A program made the position numbers and the translations under genes. DNA of 64,000 nucleotides. Origin: a virus. Shown here in pieces: positions 3,484 to 41,058 of this stretch; within the stretch, counting starts at the first letter, position 1; every line of letters starts with the position of its first letter. The DNA is taken from positions 29,001-93,000 of IMG/VR virus record IMGVR_UViG_3300043607_000039, one strand, 5' to 3'. The notes beneath the pieces are model-generated. The model made no database searches. It was not told the origin of the DNA and saw only the letters and a program-made list of their open reading frames with translations.

Positions 3484-3549
3484 TCGACATGCCTAGCACG
3501 CGTTAGTCCACGGCACCGTGCCGTGGCGGCTTAGGGGCAGGTCGCTTAC

Positions 3550-3912
3550 ATGTCCAGGACAGATGTCCACGCACCATGGCGGGTGAAGCAGCGGGATCCG
3601 CTGTGGCGCCACTACTTCCGTGAGGTGCACCGTCATGATGACGGTGTCTGCACGCTCGACCGTTTCCTGGCCGCCACCAGCCGGGTCAGGACTTCCTGCT
3701 ACATCGACTTTGCCTGGCGCGGCCGGCAGATCCACTGTGGCTGCGGCAGTTGCACGGATCAGGACGGCCGTCGGATGAGGCGTCGTCGGGAACGGCACGA
3801 GGTTCGTCAAGCCCTGCTCCTGGGAGACTGGGACAACCTCGATGTGGAGTTGCATCGGGATGCCTGGTGCACGTACAACGTCCAGCCGCGACCCCAGGAT
3901 AGGGATGTGTGA
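3550..3912 (+). CDS. Basic His/Cys/Arg-rich 'MSRTD' protein
   Basis: MSRTDVHAPWRVK...; similar to 28854-29264. Confidence 0.65.
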   Translation: MSRTDVHAPWRVKQRDPLWRHYFREVHRHDDGVCTLDRFLAATSRVRTSCYIDFAWRGRQIHCGCGSCTDQDGRRMRRRRERHEVRQALLLGDWDNLDVELHRDAWCTYNVQPRPQDRDV

Positions 3913-4019
3913 TGAAACTGAAGTCGTTCCCGGTCATCTTGACCGTGATCGTCGTTGTCGTCCTCTGCCTGTGCGCCGGCTTCGGGTTTCGCGTAGCCAG
4001 CTGGACCCTGCAAGGGTGA
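3912..4019 (+). CDS. Small membrane protein
   Basis: 35 aa hydrophobic ORF overlapping the upstream stop. Confidence 0.45.
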   Translation: MKLKSFPVILTVIVVVVLCLCAGFGFRVASWTLQG

Positions 4020-4061
4020 GACTCACGGCTGCTCGGGGAAAAAGATCTTGAGGATTAACCG

Positions 4062-4090
4062 TTGACGCCACCCGGACGTACGGGTACGGT
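4062..4090 (+). promoter_or_regulatory. Promoter of tRNA array with operator in spacer
   Basis: TTGACG-17nt-TACGGT; ACCCGGACGTACGGGT at 4070-4085. Confidence 0.7.
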
Positions 4091-4185
4091 TCTCGTTGTT
4101 CGGTGGTTCGCAACCAGCTAAGAGTCTTGCCCCTCCGGGGGCAAGGCCCTACGCTCAACATCAACCCGTCAGGAAGCCAGGAGCC

Positions 4186-4326
4186 ATGTACCGGAACGCC
4201 TTGTCGACAACGCAGCAGTCGCTGCGCGGCGAAGCGACCCCGGGCAGCGGACGGCGACTGGTCTCCATGTACAAGGCCAACGATTGGTTCTGCCCCCAGG
4301 AGCACATCCACCGGCGGAGCAGCTAG
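4186..4326 (+). CDS. Attenuator leader peptide (46 aa) containing all 20 amino acids
   Basis: AGGAG RBS; MYRNALSTTQQSLRGEATPGSGRRLVSMYKANDWFCPQEHIHRRSS-TAG; lies between promoter and terminator. Confidence 0.8.
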   Translation: MYRNALSTTQQSLRGEATPGSGRRLVSMYKANDWFCPQEHIHRRSS

Positions 4327-4339
4327 GGTCCAGAAACCC

Positions 4340-4381
4340 GAAGCCGCCCACCCAGTGAACCTGGAAGAGGCGGCTTTCTTC
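4340..4381 (+). terminator. Intrinsic terminator/attenuator upstream of first tRNA
   Basis: GAAGCCGCC/GGCGGCTTT stem followed by CTTC; competing GGCGG (4313-4317) in leader. Confidence 0.75.
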
Positions 4382-4397
4382 ATCTACAAGTCCATAT

Positions 4398-4470
4398 AGG
4401 GGTGTAGCTCAATTGGCTGAGCTGTCGTCTCCAAAGCGACCGGTTGCAGGTTCGAGTCCTGTCACCCCTG
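4398..4470 (+). tRNA. tRNA-Trp(CCA)
   Basis: Cloverleaf; gtcgt-CTCCAAA-gcgac. Confidence 0.9.
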
Positions 4471-4574
4471 CGTGTTACTTCCGGGCAACCGGAGTTACTT
4501 GAGAATTCCACAGTGGACAGCATGTGTAGATAGAGTCCTGGCCTGTGCCATCACGGGTGGGCCAGGACTATCTT

Positions 4575-4648
4575 CGGGACGTAGCGCAGTCAGGTCGCGC
4601 GCCTGCTTTGGGAGCAGGAGGACGTCGGTTCGAATCCGACCGTCCCGA
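4575..4648 (+). tRNA. tRNA-Pro(TGG)
   Basis: cctgc-TTTGGGA-gcagg. Confidence 0.9.
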
Positions 4649-4653
4649 CGCAT

Positions 4654-4730
4654 GGGGGTATGGCGCAGTTGGTAGCGCGTCTGTCTGTATGGCATACAGA
4701 AGGCCCGCGGTTCGAGTCCGCGTATCTCCA
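4654..4730 (+). tRNA. tRNA-Ala(GGC), with 4-nt TCTG duplication before anticodon stem
   Basis: tctgt-ATGGCAT-acaga; G3.U70. Confidence 0.75.
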
Positions 4731-4826
4731 CGGGTCGTAGTTCAGGGTAGAGCGCCGCGTAAAGGTGTTAGCCGCAAGGTGCACGGAATGTAGCGGAGGC
4801 GCAGGAATCGAATCCTGCCGACTCCA
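4731..4826 (+). ncRNA. tRNA-like RNA with anticodon loop replaced by extended hairpin
   Basis: D arm, T arm and acceptor present; ~34-nt insert with GCAA tetraloop in place of anticodon loop. Confidence 0.6.
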
Positions 4827-4830
4827 GTCT

Positions 4831-4903
4831 GGGGATGTAGCTCACTTGGTAGAGCGCTGTCTTCGCAAGGCAGAGGCAAGGAGTTCGAATCTCCTCATCT
4901 CCA
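4831..4903 (+). tRNA. tRNA-Ala(CGC)
   Basis: ctgtc-TTCGCAA-ggcag. Confidence 0.9.
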
Positions 4904-4953
4904 CGTCGGTATGGGAAGCTCCGAGGTGAGCAACCTCGCCTGTGCCGGCTCCA

Positions 4954-5030
4954 TGTTCCCTAGCTCATCGACAGAGCGTCAGTCCTGATACGACTGGAGG
5001 TCCGGGGTTTAATTCCTCGGGGGAGCACCA
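4954..5030 (+). tRNA. tRNA with GAT anticodon (Ile), atypical
   Basis: cagtc-CTGATAC-gactg; T loop TTTAATT; encoded CCA. Confidence 0.65.
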
Positions 5031-6765: not shown

Positions 6766-6837
6766 GCGGGTGTGGCGCAACGGTAGCGAGGCTCCCTCTA
6801 AAGGAGATGGTTGCGGGTTCGAGTCCCGTCGCCCGCA
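6766..6837 (+). tRNA. Amber suppressor tRNA (CTA)
   Basis: ctcc-CTCTAAA-ggag; intact acceptor and T arm. Confidence 0.8.
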
Positions 6838-6886
6838 CGTGACAAACACATAGGTAAGAAACGACAAGGTTCATGGAGGTGAACCA

Positions 6887-11763: not shown

Positions 11764-11925
11764 ATGGCTTACGACTACGACAAGGCGAAGCAGATTGTCA
11801 TAGACGCCCTGCGCGATGAAGACCAGCGCGGCGGCCCGATGCAGCGCGAGTACCCGCGCGCCATCATCGAATCACTGGCGCACAACATCGCACTGCAAAT
11901 CGAGGAAGAGGCCGTCAGCGAGTAG
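11764..11925 (+). CDS. Small hypothetical protein
   Basis: CCTGGAGAG RBS; MAYDYDKAKQIVIDAL... Confidence 0.55.
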   Translation: MAYDYDKAKQIVIDALRDEDQRGGPMQREYPRAIIESLAHNIALQIEEEAVSE

Positions 11926-19344: not shown

Positions 19345-19379
19345 GTAGTCAAGCTATGCTGTCCACTGTGGAGATTCAC

Positions 19380-23588: not shown

Positions 23589-26500
23589 CTAGAAACCATA
23601 GTTGTACGATCCGGCGTCCTGCCATAGAGACTGAAGCGTAGAAGAAAGGGCATCCCGCGGCGACGAAATGCGAACCTCTTTCTTTTCACCATCCATCAGG
23701 AAGCGGCAGGCGTGAACTAAGGCGTCAAGTCTGTCTGGTGAATCCCTGGTGCCCCAGCCAACGAACGTGGACATCTGGTCTTCCAGCTCCTGTTGATGAC
23801 CCAGGATGTGAAGTCGGCCCTGTTCACAGCGCATGGCAACAGGCTCACCGCGGGTGCGCTTTCCGATTTTGGTATCGATGCCCACGATGGGCGGCTTGGT
23901 ATGTGCGGGGAATAGGCCCTGCCCGACCAGTTCGAAGTAAGCGTCGTGGAAGACCTGAGACATCCACTTTTTACCGAGGTTGACTTCGCAGACGAGCTTG
24001 TCGGCCCCGAACTCGGCCACCACCCGCCAGGCCTCCAGCGCGGCGGCCCGACCCACGGACATGATCGAGCGGTCGGCTAGGACGTACATGTGCTTCTGGC
24101 GGTCCCGGCCGACAACGACAATGCCCATCTCGTCGTCCTCGCCGGTGAGCGAGGGGTCGACCCCCACGACCGTGGCCACCAGATCGTCGGGGACGTCCAG
24201 GATCCGGTTGTTCTCGATGTCCAGACGGGAGAACAGGGCGCCCTCGAACGCCTCGATGATCTCGCCGTACAGCTCCTGGCGGCCGACCATCGTGCCTTCG
24301 TACCGTCGTCGAAGCTCTTCGATCACCAGGGACGAGAGGTTCGAGGCGTTCTCGAACGTGGAGCCCCGCATCAGGTGGACGGTGCCGTCGCCACGGCGCA
24401 CCCATTCCTGGAGAATGTCCACCGGCTTCGGCGTGGTGGTCACGAACGCCCGGGGGTGGTCGCCGGCCAGGTCGGCCCGGAGGGAGGGCATGATGCCTTC
24501 CTCCCACGACTTCTTCGGGAACTTCCATTTGCAGTTGTGGACCAGGATGCGACCGCTGCCGGCAAAAAACTCCGGATCATCGCCTTCGACGGTGATGTCG
24601 TAGACGTTGATTGTCTCTGGCATCCGCCGGATGCCAGAGATCCGCACCGGGTGATGTGGCGCTAGCCCACGGCCCAACATGTCTTCGGGTGCTCCGTACT
24701 TCGCGGTCCAAACGACGTCGTTGACGTGAAGCTCGGACACCTTCCGCCAGCCTTCGTCGGTCCACACCCGGTGGTCCGGCGTCAGCCTCACGGTTGCGGT
24801 GCCGCCAGTAGAGATTTCCCAGACCTCAGCGTCTGGCTGCGTGAGGCGAGACATGATGACCCTGGCGTAGCCGTTACGTGTCAGTACCTCGTCTCCGACT
24901 CGTACGTCTTGAACCGGTGTCCCCAAACGGGGACCACTCCGCGTGAGAATCGGCTCGTTCTTGGCGATACAGATCTCATCGAGCCACGCGCCCGATGAGT
25001 TATAACCACGACCAACGTCCGGGTCATCCGCACCTTCGGTATAGATCTTCGTGCCCGAAGGGAACAGCACCATGGGGCGTGGGCTCATCTTGTAGCGGTG
25101 TCGAATCTTGCGACGGTTCAGTACCTGGAGAATCCCAGCCGGCCCCTCCATGCAAATCGTCCGGCCGTCGGAAAGCGTCTCCGCGATAACCAGCCACTCG
25201 GTCGGGACACCGCGACTGTCGTAGGGGTGCTTAATCGTCTGGGAGACGATCCATTCGCTGCCACTGCGGGAGTTGTGGGTTGGGATCAGGCCCTCGCCGA
25301 CGAGGTACATGGAGTTCGGGGAGTCCACCGTGATGCAGCGCATCGGGGTCGGGTCAATTCGCTCGGCCCCGATGATCATGCGGTGCTGGGTCCGAAGCCC
25401 CTGGCCATCCGGGGGTACGTAGGTGGCCATCTTGCGGGGGGATGTGAACGGGTTGAACGTGGGGCGCCAGGAGACTCGGTACTTGGCCCCCTTGTCGACG
25501 CCGTAGAGCTGGGCCCGTCCCACATGCATGTAGGGGCGCTGGCCAAGCGAGCGGGCCAGGTGCATGACACCGTCGGCCAGCTCTTTGGTGATCGAGCAGA
25601 ACTCCACCTTGGATGCTTCGCCGTAACCGTCGGAGTCCATGAGGCCAGCGAGAAGCGCCCTGCGCTGTTCCACCGACGCCCAGAGGTACTTCTGGGGAAC
25701 ATGCTTGTTGTCCAGAACGTCGATGTGACGCAACTGACTAACCAGGCCGCCGGGCGTTCCCGTGAACCACTGCCCGTCCCTAGGCCTGAGTAGGCAATCG
25801 AAGCCTGCATCAATGACGCACTCCACGACGTGGTCGATGTCGGCTAGGTGACCGGAAATAGTCCCGGCAGAAGTTGAGCCGTTGCCCAGCCAGTAGCCAA
25901 GTAGCCACGGATCCACCGTCAGGCGCACCTCCGGCAACTCAAGAGCGCCGGTCAGGGGAATCGAATGGTTCAGGTCACCACGGGCGTTGTATGTCAGCGT
26001 GTCTACGAGGTCCTGTGTGGTTCTGATTCGGGGGCCAGGGCCTTCTTGATCCCGGTACGGTGGGTTGCTCTTGTGCCGCTTCATGGGGCGCCATGTTGGC
26101 CAGTCCAGCGGGAACCTGGTCGTGTCGGATTCGTACTGGGAGCGGAGGTACGCCTTCCGATCTCTGTGTTCCCACGTCACCCATTGGTGCTCTGAGCATG
26201 TATCGATGTACAGGCCGTCGTTAAAGGTCAACCGGTAGGCGACCTCTGGGTCTTGGTCAAACGTCGCGGTGACCCGGCACGGCTTACCGGCTTCGTCGAA
26301 AACCCAGTCCCCGACCTCCAGATCACCGAGCTTCTTGAATCCGCCCCGGCCTGGCACGGGTCGACGGCGTTCATCGGTGCTACAGTTCGCAACTGGAATA
26401 GATGTAGATACGTCGATCGCCTTTCCCCAACCGCGGCCAGCCAATGCCAGGCACACGAACCAGTTACCGGGCGGCGGAATCTGCTCGGGACGGGCTACCC

Positions 26501-26615
26501 ACCACCAGTCGCCACGCATAATCTCGTCAATAACCCAGTCAGGTTGCTCGGCTAGCCACGCTCTCCTGTCAATTTCAGGAAGCGCAGCGACTCGGTCCTG
26601 GAGAGATAACGCCAT
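23589..26615 (-). CDS. terL: Terminase large subunit with two inteins
   Basis: Walker A AGRGWGK|S, Walker B WLDE, TTTP motif, VGVDP nuclease domain, SPDRLDAL. Confidence 0.92.
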   Translation of the reverse strand: MALSLQDRVAALPEIDRRAWLAEQPDWVIDEIMRGDWWWVARPEQIPPPGNWFVCLALAGRGWGKAIDVSTSIPVANCSTDERRRPVPGRGGFKKLGDLEVGDWVFDEAGKPCRVTATFDQDPEVAYRLTFNDGLYIDTCSEHQWVTWEHRDRKAYLRSQYESDTTRFPLDWPTWRPMKRHKSNPPYRDQEGPGPRIRTTQDLVDTLTYNARGDLNHSIPLTGALELPEVRLTVDPWLLGYWLGNGSTSAGTISGHLADIDHVVECVIDAGFDCLLRPRDGQWFTGTPGGLVSQLRHIDVLDNKHVPQKYLWASVEQRRALLAGLMDSDGYGEASKVEFCSITKELADGVMHLARSLGQRPYMHVGRAQLYGVDKGAKYRVSWRPTFNPFTSPRKMATYVPPDGQGLRTQHRMIIGAERIDPTPMRCITVDSPNSMYLVGEGLIPTHNSRSGSEWIVSQTIKHPYDSRGVPTEWLVIAETLSDGRTICMEGPAGILQVLNRRKIRHRYKMSPRPMVLFPSGTKIYTEGADDPDVGRGYNSSGAWLDEICIAKNEPILTRSGPRLGTPVQDVRVGDEVLTRNGYARVIMSRLTQPDAEVWEISTGGTATVRLTPDHRVWTDEGWRKVSELHVNDVVWTAKYGAPEDMLGRGLAPHHPVRISGIRRMPETINVYDITVEGDDPEFFAGSGRILVHNCKWKFPKKSWEEGIMPSLRADLAGDHPRAFVTTTPKPVDILQEWVRRGDGTVHLMRGSTFENASNLSSLVIEELRRRYEGTMVGRQELYGEIIEAFEGALFSRLDIENNRILDVPDDLVATVVGVDPSLTGEDDEMGIVVVGRDRQKHMYVLADRSIMSVGRAAALEAWRVVAEFGADKLVCEVNLGKKWMSQVFHDAYFELVGQGLFPAHTKPPIVGIDTKIGKRTRGEPVAMRCEQGRLHILGHQQELEDQMSTFVGWGTRDSPDRLDALVHACRFLMDGEKKEVRISSPRDALSSTLQSLWQDAGSYNYGF
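24534..24971 (-). mobile_element. Mini-intein (class 1), 146 aa
   Basis: CIAKNEP...LTPDHRV...VYDITV...LVHN|C. Confidence 0.85.
25272..26420 (-). mobile_element. Class 3 intein (Ala1) with LAGLIDADG endonuclease, 383 aa
   Basis: AIDVST...HQW...LAGLMDSDG...MRCITVD...PTHN|S. Confidence 0.85.
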
Positions 26616-39383: not shown

Positions 39384-39432
39384 CATGTGACGTTGCAGCT
39401 CCTCCCCGTTCCCTGGAGAGGAGTTGTTTTTC

Positions 39433-41058
39433 ATGAGCAAGTTCAATCGAGCAGCAAGCAACGCGGCAGCGCGGCCCGAGGTCGATGAGGCCACCAACGT
39501 GGTCGTGACGGCGGTCGGCACGGCGAAGAGCCCGATCAAGACCCGCAAGACGGTCACGGGTGTCACGGGCCAGGGAGCCCCAGGCTACGAGCACGGCGAC
39601 AAGTCGGCGCTCTTCCTCCTCGCGGTCACCAACATGGTCAGCGAGGACACCTTCTACGAGAAGGCCGGCGACCGGGACGAGCGGTTCGAGAACCTGGTCA
39701 CTCGGGTCGCGATCAAGGACCCGGAGTGGATCATCGGCTTCTTCGGCTGGCTCCGGAGCGAGGCCAACATGCGCTCGGCATCCCTCGTGGGTGCGCTGGT
39801 GGCCGCCCAGGCGATGGTCATGGTCGGTGTGCCTGGTGCTCGTCAGATGGTGACATCGGTGCTCCAGCGGGCCGACGAGCCGGGCGAGGCCCTGGCCTAC
39901 TGGATCAAGATGTTCGGCCGCAACATCCCGAAGCCGGTGAAGCGTGGCATCGCCGACGCAGCCACCCGGCTGTACAACGAGTACACGACCCTGAAGTACG
40001 ACACCGCGAGCCACGCGGTCCGCTTCGGTGACGTGCTCGACCTGACCCACCCGAAGGCCACCGCCCAGTGGCAGGCCAACCTGTACCGCTACGTGCTGGC
40101 CATGCGCCACAACCGGGACGAGATCCCGGAGGTCGGCCCTGGCCTGCCGATGATCCTCGCCAACCACGCCCTGCGTTCGGCTGGCGCGGAGCTACCGGAG
40201 CTGTTGCTCAACTCGGAGCACCTGCGCCGGGCCGGCATGACGTGGGAGGACGCACTGTCCCTGGTCGGCTCCAAGGTCGACAAGGGCAAGCTGTGGGAGG
40301 CCATGATCCCGAGCATGGGCTACATGGCGCTGTTGCGGAACCTGCGCAACTTCGACAAGGCCAACGTCTCGGACGAGGTTGCCCAGCAGGTGATCGAGCG
40401 GCTCTCGGACCCGGCCCAGGTGGCTCGGTCCCGGCAGTTCCCGTTCCGGTTCCTGGCCGCCTACCGGGCGACCGCCGGCACGTCAGTGCGCTGGGCGGCT
40501 GCCCTGGAGAAGGCCCTGTCGGCTTCGGTCAGCAACATCCCGGAGCTGCCAGGTCGGACCCTGGTCCTGGTCGACCGGTCGGGCTCGATGTTCATGCCCA
40601 TGAGCGGTCGCACGGAGCTGGACCGTTCGGACGCAGCTGCGGTATTCGGTGGGGCCGTCGCCCTGCGCAACGCTGGCCGGGTGACGCTGGTCCAGTTCGA
40701 CGACAGCTCGCGGGAGATCCCGGTACCCACCGGCCGCGGGTCACTGCTCAAGCTCGTGGAGAAGTTCACGGGCGGAGGCGGAACGAGTACGGCCGCCGCG
40801 GTGCGTAAGCACTTCAACGGCCACGACCGGGTCATCATCGTCACCGACGAACAGTCCAACGGTGGCGACCCCAGTGGGGTTATCCCGAAGAACGTGCCGC
40901 TGTACACCTGGAACTTGGCCGGCTACCAGTTCACTGGTACGTCGGGTGGGAGCAAGCGGCACACGTTCGGCGGCCTGACCGACAGCGCCTTCAAGCTGAT
41001 CCCGATGCTAGAGGCCGGTGTCGACCAGGGCTGGCCATGGGAGGTTGACGCCGGCTAA
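39433..41058 (+). CDS. rsr: Ro60/TROVE-vWA RNA-binding protein
   Basis: MSKFN, EDTFYE, RADEP, MGYMALLRNLRN, SRQFPFRF, VDRSGSM, TDEQ. Confidence 0.92.
   Translation: MSKFNRAASNAAARPEVDEATNVVVTAVGTAKSPIKTRKTVTGVTGQGAPGYEHGDKSALFLLAVTNMVSEDTFYEKAGDRDERFENLVTRVAIKDPEWIIGFFGWLRSEANMRSASLVGALVAAQAMVMVGVPGARQMVTSVLQRADEPGEALAYWIKMFGRNIPKPVKRGIADAATRLYNEYTTLKYDTASHAVRFGDVLDLTHPKATAQWQANLYRYVLAMRHNRDEIPEVGPGLPMILANHALRSAGAELPELLLNSEHLRRAGMTWEDALSLVGSKVDKGKLWEAMIPSMGYMALLRNLRNFDKANVSDEVAQQVIERLSDPAQVARSRQFPFRFLAAYRATAGTSVRWAAALEKALSASVSNIPELPGRTLVLVDRSGSMFMPMSGRTELDRSDAAAVFGGAVALRNAGRVTLVQFDDSSREIPVPTGRGSLLKLVEKFTGGGGTSTAAAVRKHFNGHDRVIIVTDEQSNGGDPSGVIPKNVPLYTWNLAGYQFTGTSGGSKRHTFGGLTDSAFKLIPMLEAGVDQGWPWEVDAG

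Follow-up and report, generated by a model that had tools for sequence, protein, structure and literature searches.

A candidate leader-peptide attenuator, rich in different amino acids, at the head of a phage tRNA array

We describe a short cassette placed ahead of a large array of transfer RNA (tRNA) genes in a phage, and we think that the best explanation for it, to which we would give about an even chance of being right, is a ribosome-mediated transcription attenuator of the leader-peptide type that heads the array. The stretch of DNA analysed (hereafter the window) is 64,000 nucleotides (nt) long and corresponds to bases 29001-93000 of the 93-kb IMG/VR virus record IMGVR_UViG_3300043607_000039, with a GC content of about 62%. 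It contains 43 tRNA genes, all on the + strand and spanning 4398-28551 (ARAGORN), which form an essentially complete array with homing-endonuclease-like and small genes intermixed. Between a putative promoter and the first of these tRNA genes lie a short open reading frame (ORF), the leader, and a predicted intrinsic terminator. Comparable leaders head tRNA arrays in four further, diverged high-GC phage lineages, and none of them has codon runs for any amino acid that would be sensed; instead, they bring together 18-20 amino-acid types in 36-53 codons. The features computed directly are the anatomy of the cassette, its conservation in five lineages, the translation signature of the leader, its diversity in spite of unrelated sequences, and a predicted pairing that a ribosome could occlude. 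In the window, the parts are the following:

4062-4090, + strand: putative promoter P1, with -35 TTGACG at 4062-4067, a 17-nt spacer and -10 TACGGT at 4085-4090
4124-4147, + strand: GC-rich 10-bp hairpin of the 5' untranslated region (UTR), from predicted folds
4171-4183, + strand: predicted purine-rich ribosome-binding tract (GGAAG..AGGAG), with AGGAG at 4179-4183, 2 nt from the ATG
4186-4326, + strand: leader ORF, 46 codons plus TAG, with all 20 amino acids
4231-4308, + strand: 26 consecutive different codons (codons 16-41) covering all 20 amino acids
4255-4308, + strand: 18 consecutive different residues (residues 24-41)
4290-4322, + strand: hairpin in the 3' part of the ORF, from folding, a possible "1:2" element
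4316-4349, + strand: predicted antiterminator, in which 4316-4324 pairs with the 5' arm of the terminator, 4342-4349
4340-4385, + strand: predicted intrinsic terminator of -21 kcal/mol; 5' arm 4340-4349, 3' arm 4369-4378, and a 4-bp helix inside
4398-4471, + strand: tRNA-Trp(CCA), first gene of the array and its only Trp tRNA

The promoter hexamers, the AGGAG, the 46-codon ORF, the terminator hairpin and the first tRNA are all present at the coordinates given in a preliminary description of this DNA, and its counts of 18 consecutive different residues and of 26 different codons covering all 20 amino acids were found correct when repeated.

The leader in five lineages

The run of 18 different residues is the longest across all six frames of the window, the runner-up having 16, and such a run has a probability of about 1e-5 per 46-residue ORF under a null that follows the amino-acid composition of this phage's proteins; with the same null, the presence of all 20 amino acids in an ORF of this length has p=0.016. 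As for the codons, none of about 12,000 46-codon windows taken from the real genes of the phage contains 26 consecutive different ones (the maximum is 24). Because the diversity statistic was chosen after the data had been seen, the weight of the argument rests on its replication in four other lineages. These were reached by three routes, namely the 120-residue protein encoded next to the cassette (described below), the tRNA-Trp sequence, and a pattern combining terminator arms and a tRNA start; this last pattern is a loose one, which gave chance matches for the most part and a single useful locus, L106. The five leaders are listed here with their number of different amino acids and the one-sided p value for this number:

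Window: leader 4186-4326; 20 types in 46 codons, p=0.016
L004 (= G004): leader L004:301-462; 20 types in 53 codons, p=0.042; 42 tRNAs; 62% GC
G001: leader L103:1299-1415; 19 types in 38 codons, p=0.033; 39 tRNAs; 65% GC
G003: leader L104:6804-6935, minus strand; 20 types in 43 codons, p=0.0095; 27-29 tRNAs; 62% GC
L106: leader on the minus strand; 18 types in 36 codons, p=0.104; at least 15 tRNAs on the contig; 70% GC

Length-matched draws from the phage protein composition contain 15.7-17.5 types on average, and the diversity is replicated when the four lineages are combined without the discovery case (Fisher p=7e-4), the null being conservative for the two lineages of higher GC content. Inspection of the translations by eye indicates that Cys occurs exactly once in every leader and Trp at least once. 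By comparison, the ORFs that lie in the long spacers within the G001 array show no codon periodicity and have at most 16 amino-acid types, with two exceptions, an ordinary gene of 134 residues and an ORF of 49 residues whose GC content at third codon positions (GC3) is 0.86 and which has 13 types.

The order of the parts is common to the five lineages: a promoter-like site, a 5' UTR of about 30-150 nt, a purine tract, an ORF of 36-53 codons, a hairpin with a U-rich tail and a tRNA-Trp, which in all five heads a large array. There are 13-22 nt from the stop codon to the strong hairpin and 12-27 nt from the hairpin to tRNA-Trp, and in each lineage the leader stop codon lies within or beside a small hairpin. 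The comparison put forward in the preliminary description, that is, a search before related arrays for diverse short ORFs of variable order followed by a terminator, has thus been positive in four other lineages.

What flanks the leader ORFs (promoter, ribosome-binding tract, stop region, terminator core and tRNA) can be aligned between lineages, whereas the ORFs themselves cannot. The leader peptides of the window and L004 gave no match in BLASTP and a marginal global alignment (p ~0.016), and searches with either of them among 1.84 and 5.8 billion proteins recovered the query's own record only. The adjoining 120-residue protein is still 48% identical between lineages whose leader peptides cannot be aligned. 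At the level of sequence, a leader whose composition is kept while its order of residues is not is the prediction of selection for "one of each".

The leader also looks translated, judging from a codon signature specific to one frame and from the comparison with L002, another IMG/VR contig that is a close relative of the window. In the window leader, the GC contents at codon positions 1/2/3 are 0.54/0.54/0.89, as in the known genes of the phage. Scored by codon-usage log-odds, the leader frame obtains +0.27 and the two other frames -0.45 and -0.74 (for reference, real genes score 0.49+/-0.29 and off-frame windows -0.76+/-0.24). For the five leaders together, GC3 ranges from 0.74 to 0.89 and the values at the first and second positions from 0.47 to 0.65, and the ORFs of the window and L004 are gene-like in one frame only. 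The purine tract at 4171-4183 aligns with GGAAGGGAGGG directly 5' of the L004 leader ATG, so that its position is conserved, and comparable tracts are found before the ATG of the leader in G001, G003 and L106. Window and L002 are 97-99% identical over a block that extends from 4044 to about 4570, with strongly diverged coding sequence on both sides. Within this block, the leader ORF differs by four synonymous and two non-synonymous substitutions (L6S, V26A) and by one in-frame 3-nt deletion, and the 5' UTR by one substitution and two single-nucleotide indels. Since these indels break a longer, TTG-started frame in L002, the leader start can be placed at the ATG at 4186.

Two side observations may be recorded here. 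The array includes a tRNA with a CUA (amber-reading) anticodon at 6766-6838 and the leader stop is TAG; if this TAG were read through, the frame would continue without a stop through the entire terminator until a second TAG, at 4405-4407 (4324-4407 from the leader end to that point). None of the five leaders ends in TGA, which accounts for 59% of this phage's stops. We considered a functional link between the leader TAG and the amber-suppressor tRNA and rejected it: there is no such tRNA in L004 and G004, two leaders end in TAA, and TAG represents 29% of the phage stops. In G001, the first tRNAs (L103 1571-4211) are split by GC-rich spacers of 250-670 nt, one of which holds the 134-residue gene and which are mostly without coding periodicity; these spacers are possibly structured RNAs.

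Terminator, alternative pairing and proposed mechanism

The terminator hairpin, which in the window is followed by the U-rich tail TTTCTTCATCT (4375-4385), is conserved in the five lineages around an invariant GCCGCC/GGCGGC core. Six of its 14 consensus pairs are retained through changes on both sides, and compensatory changes are seen at the base of the hairpin. The predicted terminators have energies of -21 to -31 kcal/mol and U-rich tails, the tail of G001 being weak. In the 20 nt between the hairpin and tRNA-Trp there is no space for a promoter, and read-through is therefore required if the only Trp tRNA of the array is to be made. A possible second promoter situated after tRNA-Trp (TTGAGA...TAGATA) was ruled out, its hexamers being 22 nt apart.

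Because attenuation is a kinetic process, the folds that we consider relevant are those of RNA truncated before the 3' arm of the terminator. In such folds of the window, positions 4316-4324, which correspond to the last three codons and the first base of the stop codon, are predicted to pair with the 5' arm with probabilities of 0.89-0.96, in a helix that encloses a mini-hairpin (4326-4339), the whole element folding at -14.4 kcal/mol. The same pairing between 5' arm and last codons is predicted in all five lineages, with a mean probability of 0.68-0.87, and falls to 0.02-0.25 when the A site of a ribosome is placed at the stop codon, with only the RNA ahead of the ribosome being folded; in the window it is lost with the A site in the last six codons or so. 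The alternative elements have energies of -14 to -30 kcal/mol, to be compared with -21 to -31 for the terminators, and this ratio resembles that of the Escherichia coli trp leader.

The ribosome-controlled antiterminator of the preliminary description is retained in part: a partner for the 5' arm that a ribosome could cover is predicted in the last codons of all five lineages, but the exact register given there is not conserved. The particular pairs proposed, GGCGG 4313-4317 with CCGCC 4344-4348 and GGGT with ACCC, are broken in L002 by C4315A and T4329C, with no compensation. The register that we predict, 4316-4324 with 4342-4349, is untouched by C4315A, and this substitution falls on a bulged base of the hairpin at 4290-4322. 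No "superattenuation" element of the 1:2 type is clearly conserved. In a search of 3500-5000 against Rfam (E<=1), we found tRNA models only, besides weak chance-level matches, with no T-box or other leader.

We infer from these features that the hairpin terminates transcription, that read-through depends on the position of the ribosome and that tRNA shortage is the signal. Transcription would start from P1 at about 4097, and a ribosome would load on the leader ORF (4186-4326) and trail the polymerase. As long as the 3' arm had not been made, the 5' arm of the terminator, 4342-4349, would be free to pair with 4316-4324. A ribosome reaching the last codons or the stop on time would block this pairing, the terminator would fold, and transcription would end about 15 nt before tRNA-Trp. 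A late ribosome, delayed by a tRNA that is scarce or cleaved anywhere in the ORF or by a general impairment of translation, would let the alternative helix form first, and the polymerase would enter the tRNA genes. In this scheme the antiterminator is the default, prevented only by a ribosome present at the ORF end in time, so that any delay at any codon would have the same outcome. It could be objected that stalls distributed over 78 nt cannot all lead to one structure, and this geometry meets the objection. With near-complete amino-acid coverage, the slowest-decoded amino acid would set the delay, and the decoding capacity of the infected cell as a whole would feed back negatively on the array. 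We propose more tentatively, as a possibility about which we have more doubts than confidence, that the leader acts as a limiting-factor sensor, in which the worst-supplied tRNA (because codon usage is mismatched, the cell is starved or a host anticodon nuclease has cleaved it) would set the transcription of the 43-tRNA array.

Points of doubt and rival explanations

Several observations weigh against the attenuator that we have just outlined. First, three of the six leader versions have a near-complete amino-acid set and not the full one: a single substitution, V26A, removes the sole Val of the L002 leader, the G001 leader lacks Ile although its array encodes tRNA-Ile, and the L106 leader lacks Val and Tyr. 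The "all 20" design of the preliminary description should therefore be softened to 18-20 types per leader. The idea that the leader is an exact mirror of the amino-acid set of its array was discarded, given the case of Ile in G001 and the presence in the G003 leader of Phe, Tyr and His, for which ARAGORN finds no tRNA. Second, a leader offers no more than one or a few codons per amino acid, and a weak response to a mild or partial shortage is consequently expected; classical attenuators rely on runs of the regulatory codon. The response would be good in the case of a near-total tRNA loss, such as that following an attack by an anticodon nuclease.

Third, when upstream sequences were shuffled, the p values for the alternative pairing were 0.18, 0.06, 0.04, 0.25 and 0.065 (about 0.008 when combined by hand with Fisher's method), and the existence of a nearby pairing partner is in part a matter of geometry. 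We would say that the predicted pairing is present, consistently placed and modestly beyond chance for GC-rich RNA. Fourth, equilibrium folds give the terminator a probability of 0.84-0.96 wherever the ribosome is placed. Folding with and without a ribosome, as suggested in the preliminary description, thus reveals no switch at equilibrium, but the truncated folds do lose the pairing when the ribosome is at the ORF end. As the terminator wins every equilibrium fold, the switch must be kinetic; known attenuators are kinetic, and in the E. coli trp leader, too, the terminator is the more stable helix.

Finally, in a more distant, cultured group, Arthrobacter phage Atuin and contig L012, tRNA-Trp is preceded by a promoter whose spacer is palindromic and by a terminator-like hairpin, but there is no leader ORF. 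Homologous arrays lacking a diverse leader had been named beforehand as an argument that would speak against the proposal; such arrays do exist in Atuin-like phages, but the leader is there in four lineages besides the window. For the record, in Atuin (L224 2395-2502) and L012 (9490-9598) the promoter is near-consensus, the hairpin has a T-run and tRNA-Trp heads the tRNA region. Atuin-like phages also have a two-codon ATG-CGC-TGA a few bases past the likely start site, with its stop abutting the hairpin.

A promoter followed by an ORF and a terminator is also just what a small monocistronic gene looks like, and this leads to the main rival explanation, which we consider unlikely but worth taking seriously. 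The leader would be a small early gene of an ordinary kind, driven by its own promoter and closed by a leaky terminator, and its fast-evolving product of 46 residues could serve, for instance, in host takeover or anti-defence. Constitutive partial read-through would supply the tRNAs, and the diversity would have no sensing role. The layout, ribosome-binding site included, is the standard one for such a gene, and the coding signature of the ORF agrees with it. The ratio of synonymous to non-synonymous changes between window and L002 (4:2), together with a sole indel that is in frame, fits selection on a protein. Other small genes do sit between the tRNAs, for instance at 11764-11925; this one, however, which is the only other small ORF of the array with a gene-like coding score, has 16 amino-acid types. 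It also speaks against an ordinary gene that the peptides cannot be aligned while the 120-residue neighbour remains 48% identical and the flanking non-coding blocks align, and that no leader homologue turned up in the protein collections searched. Above all, the diversity replicated in four independent lineages would be left unexplained.

A second rival, which we find improbable, is a switch controlled by proteins, in which a regulator bound to the palindrome of the promoter spacer, or a processive antiterminator of the lambda Q / PR'-tR' type passing the terminator, or both, would govern the array, the translation of the ORF being incidental. This brings us to the promoter itself. P1 has the 17-nt spacing of the sigma-70 type with a poor -10, and was not listed by a consensus scanner; its block is identical in L002 and conserved in L004, and its spacer holds a 16-bp near-palindrome at 4070-4085. 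A family of promoter-like sites with the same elements (TTGAC, the spacer near-palindrome ACCCnnACGTnnGGGT and a TACnGT-like -10) has 15 matches on both strands of the window, against 6.0 expected. The palindrome-class sites, P1 being one of them, are:

2985, 4070, 26809 and 30988, + strand: palindrome-class promoter-like sites
19329, 47829, 53859 and 63801, - strand: palindrome-class promoter-like sites

Since this family recurs genome-wide, regulation at initiation probably exists too, and this should be counted with the points of doubt listed above. The recurrence of the palindrome on both strands and its conservation in L004 favour a protein switch, as do Atuin and L012, where a palindromic spacer and a terminator-like hairpin precede tRNA-Trp in the absence of an ORF. 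There is also a relevant case in the one bacterial long tRNA array that has been studied, the trn operon of Anabaena sp. PCC 7120. Its supernumerary tRNAs, which are horizontally mobile as an array, stay silent by default and are turned on when translation is impaired (PMC8421152); control is exerted by a repressor, TrcR, through direct repeats that cover the -10 box and the transcription start site of the array promoter, and neither of the two papers mentions a leader ORF, a terminator or attenuation (PMC8421152, PMC10272220). The invariance of the GCCGCC/GGCGGC terminator core in the five lineages points in the same direction. On the other hand, a protein switch leaves unexplained a translated and unusually diverse ORF whose position and length class are conserved in five lineages, and the promoters of G001, G003 and L106 differ and have no spacer palindrome, yet the ORF and the terminator are kept. 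Moreover, promoter regulation and attenuation can coexist, as they do in trp.

The last rival, which seems to us very improbable, is that the transcript of about 290 nt ending at the terminator is a structured leader or small RNA that codes for nothing, with the ORF as a chance open frame in GC-rich DNA. In its favour, open frames are common (a second + frame, 4103-4399, is open as well), the leader folds better than shuffled sequences (z=-2.5) and the block 4044-4570 is about 97-99% identical to L002 between diverged flanks. Against it, codon-position GC and codon-usage scores single out one frame per lineage, the L002 substitutions are concentrated in the ORF, where they are mostly synonymous and accompanied by an in-frame deletion, no Rfam family but tRNA matches, and the 5' UTR hairpin is not conserved in L004. 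This hairpin (4124-4147), which is identical in L002 and has no recognisable counterpart in L004, might be a pause hairpin for RNA polymerase.

The array, its relation to known systems and its meaning

The surroundings of the cassette deserve a few remarks. A Cys/His-rich protein of 120 residues, the one that served to reach other lineages, is encoded at 3550-3912, just 5' of the array, and likewise in L002; in L004/G004 its gene (L004 4001-4333) is located mid-array, which indicates that the array has been rearranged around this gene. Intermediate relatives exist (P0003-P0008) and were not found in the metagenome and viral scans. The window also encodes a primase-helicase, through which no IMG/VR relative was found, as well as a Ro60/TROVE plus vWA protein (39424-41058) and a large terminase split by an intein with a LAGLIDADG homing endonuclease (23589-26615, minus strand). 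There is no close cultured phage for the window at the DNA level, and near and distant DNA searches and a protein search for cultured phages with the cassette or the adjoining 120-residue protein gave tRNA matches only or nothing.

Within the array, tRNA-Trp is bracketed by hairpins, of which a smaller one comes right after this gene and a strong one (window 4534-4573; L004 about 679-721) directly before tRNA-Pro; their position is kept in L004 and their sequence is not. A tRNA-like element at 4731-4826, between tRNA-Tyr and tRNA-Ala, matches the Rfam tRNA model with 31.7 bits, just over the threshold, and is not called by ARAGORN. A 17-nt motif, TCCACAGTGGACAGCAT, with a CCAC-A-GTGG palindrome, is present at 4507-4523 (+ strand) and, inverted, at 19356-19372 (- strand), near the two ends of the main tRNA array. 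This motif is found just after tRNA-Trp in L002 and is conserved at that place in L004, and the copy at 19356 lies directly upstream of the -35 of a palindrome-class promoter on the minus strand. The motif may be a binding site for a regulator.

Compared with known systems, the cassette is probably a leader-peptide attenuator of a tRNA array, differing from the classical members of this group by its lack of codon runs. It shares with the attenuators of amino-acid operons (trpL, hisL, leuL and pheL of E. coli/Salmonella, and the multivalent leaders of thrL and ilvGMEDA) a short ORF, here predicted to be translated, between a promoter and an intrinsic terminator. It also shares with them, as far as can be predicted, an alternative partner of the 5' arm that can be covered by a ribosome at the ORF end, and an antiterminator weaker than the terminator, hence a kinetic choice. 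There are, however, several differences. Amino-acid-operon attenuators regulate biosynthetic genes, and not tRNA genes as here; their ORFs are two to three times shorter than the present leaders (36-53 codons); and they contain codon runs for one to three amino acids, whereas nearly all 20 are found here, once or a few times each. Unlike in those attenuators, a delay anywhere in the leader would act alike.

The T-box riboswitches embody the same idea, since the status of a tRNA sets the expression of genes of the translation apparatus through a choice between terminator and antiterminator, but T-boxes bind one specific uncharged tRNA directly, with no need for translation, and there is no T-box match here (Rfam). 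The translation-sensing attenuators of resistance and catabolic genes (ermC, cat, tnaC) and that of pyrBI likewise tie the advance of a ribosome along a short leader ORF to downstream genes. They respond to a drug- or ligand-dependent arrest at a specific peptide or to the speed of a polymerase limited by nucleotides, whereas in the present leaders only the composition is conserved.

Phage tRNA arrays are now viewed as counter-measures to tRNA-cleaving defences and as devices for codon supply, and to our knowledge almost nothing is known about the control of their expression; our full-text literature searches found no paper on leader-peptide control of tRNA arrays. If the explanation that we favour is true, the leader ORF would be selected for composition and not for sequence, and attenuators would gain a new design principle, in which the thing sensed is "any amino acid" and not "this amino acid". 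Such a leader would also account for how a phage spares itself the cost of about 40 tRNAs unless decoding is limiting. Leader variants without single amino acids would then provide built-in negative controls. If, in addition, the leader is a limiting-factor sensor, these variants would be blind to precisely the tRNAs of the amino acids that they lack (Val in L002, Ile in G001, Val and Tyr in L106), and the leader would combine a homeostatic control of the tRNA pool with an alarm that releases replacement tRNAs against tRNA-targeting defences.

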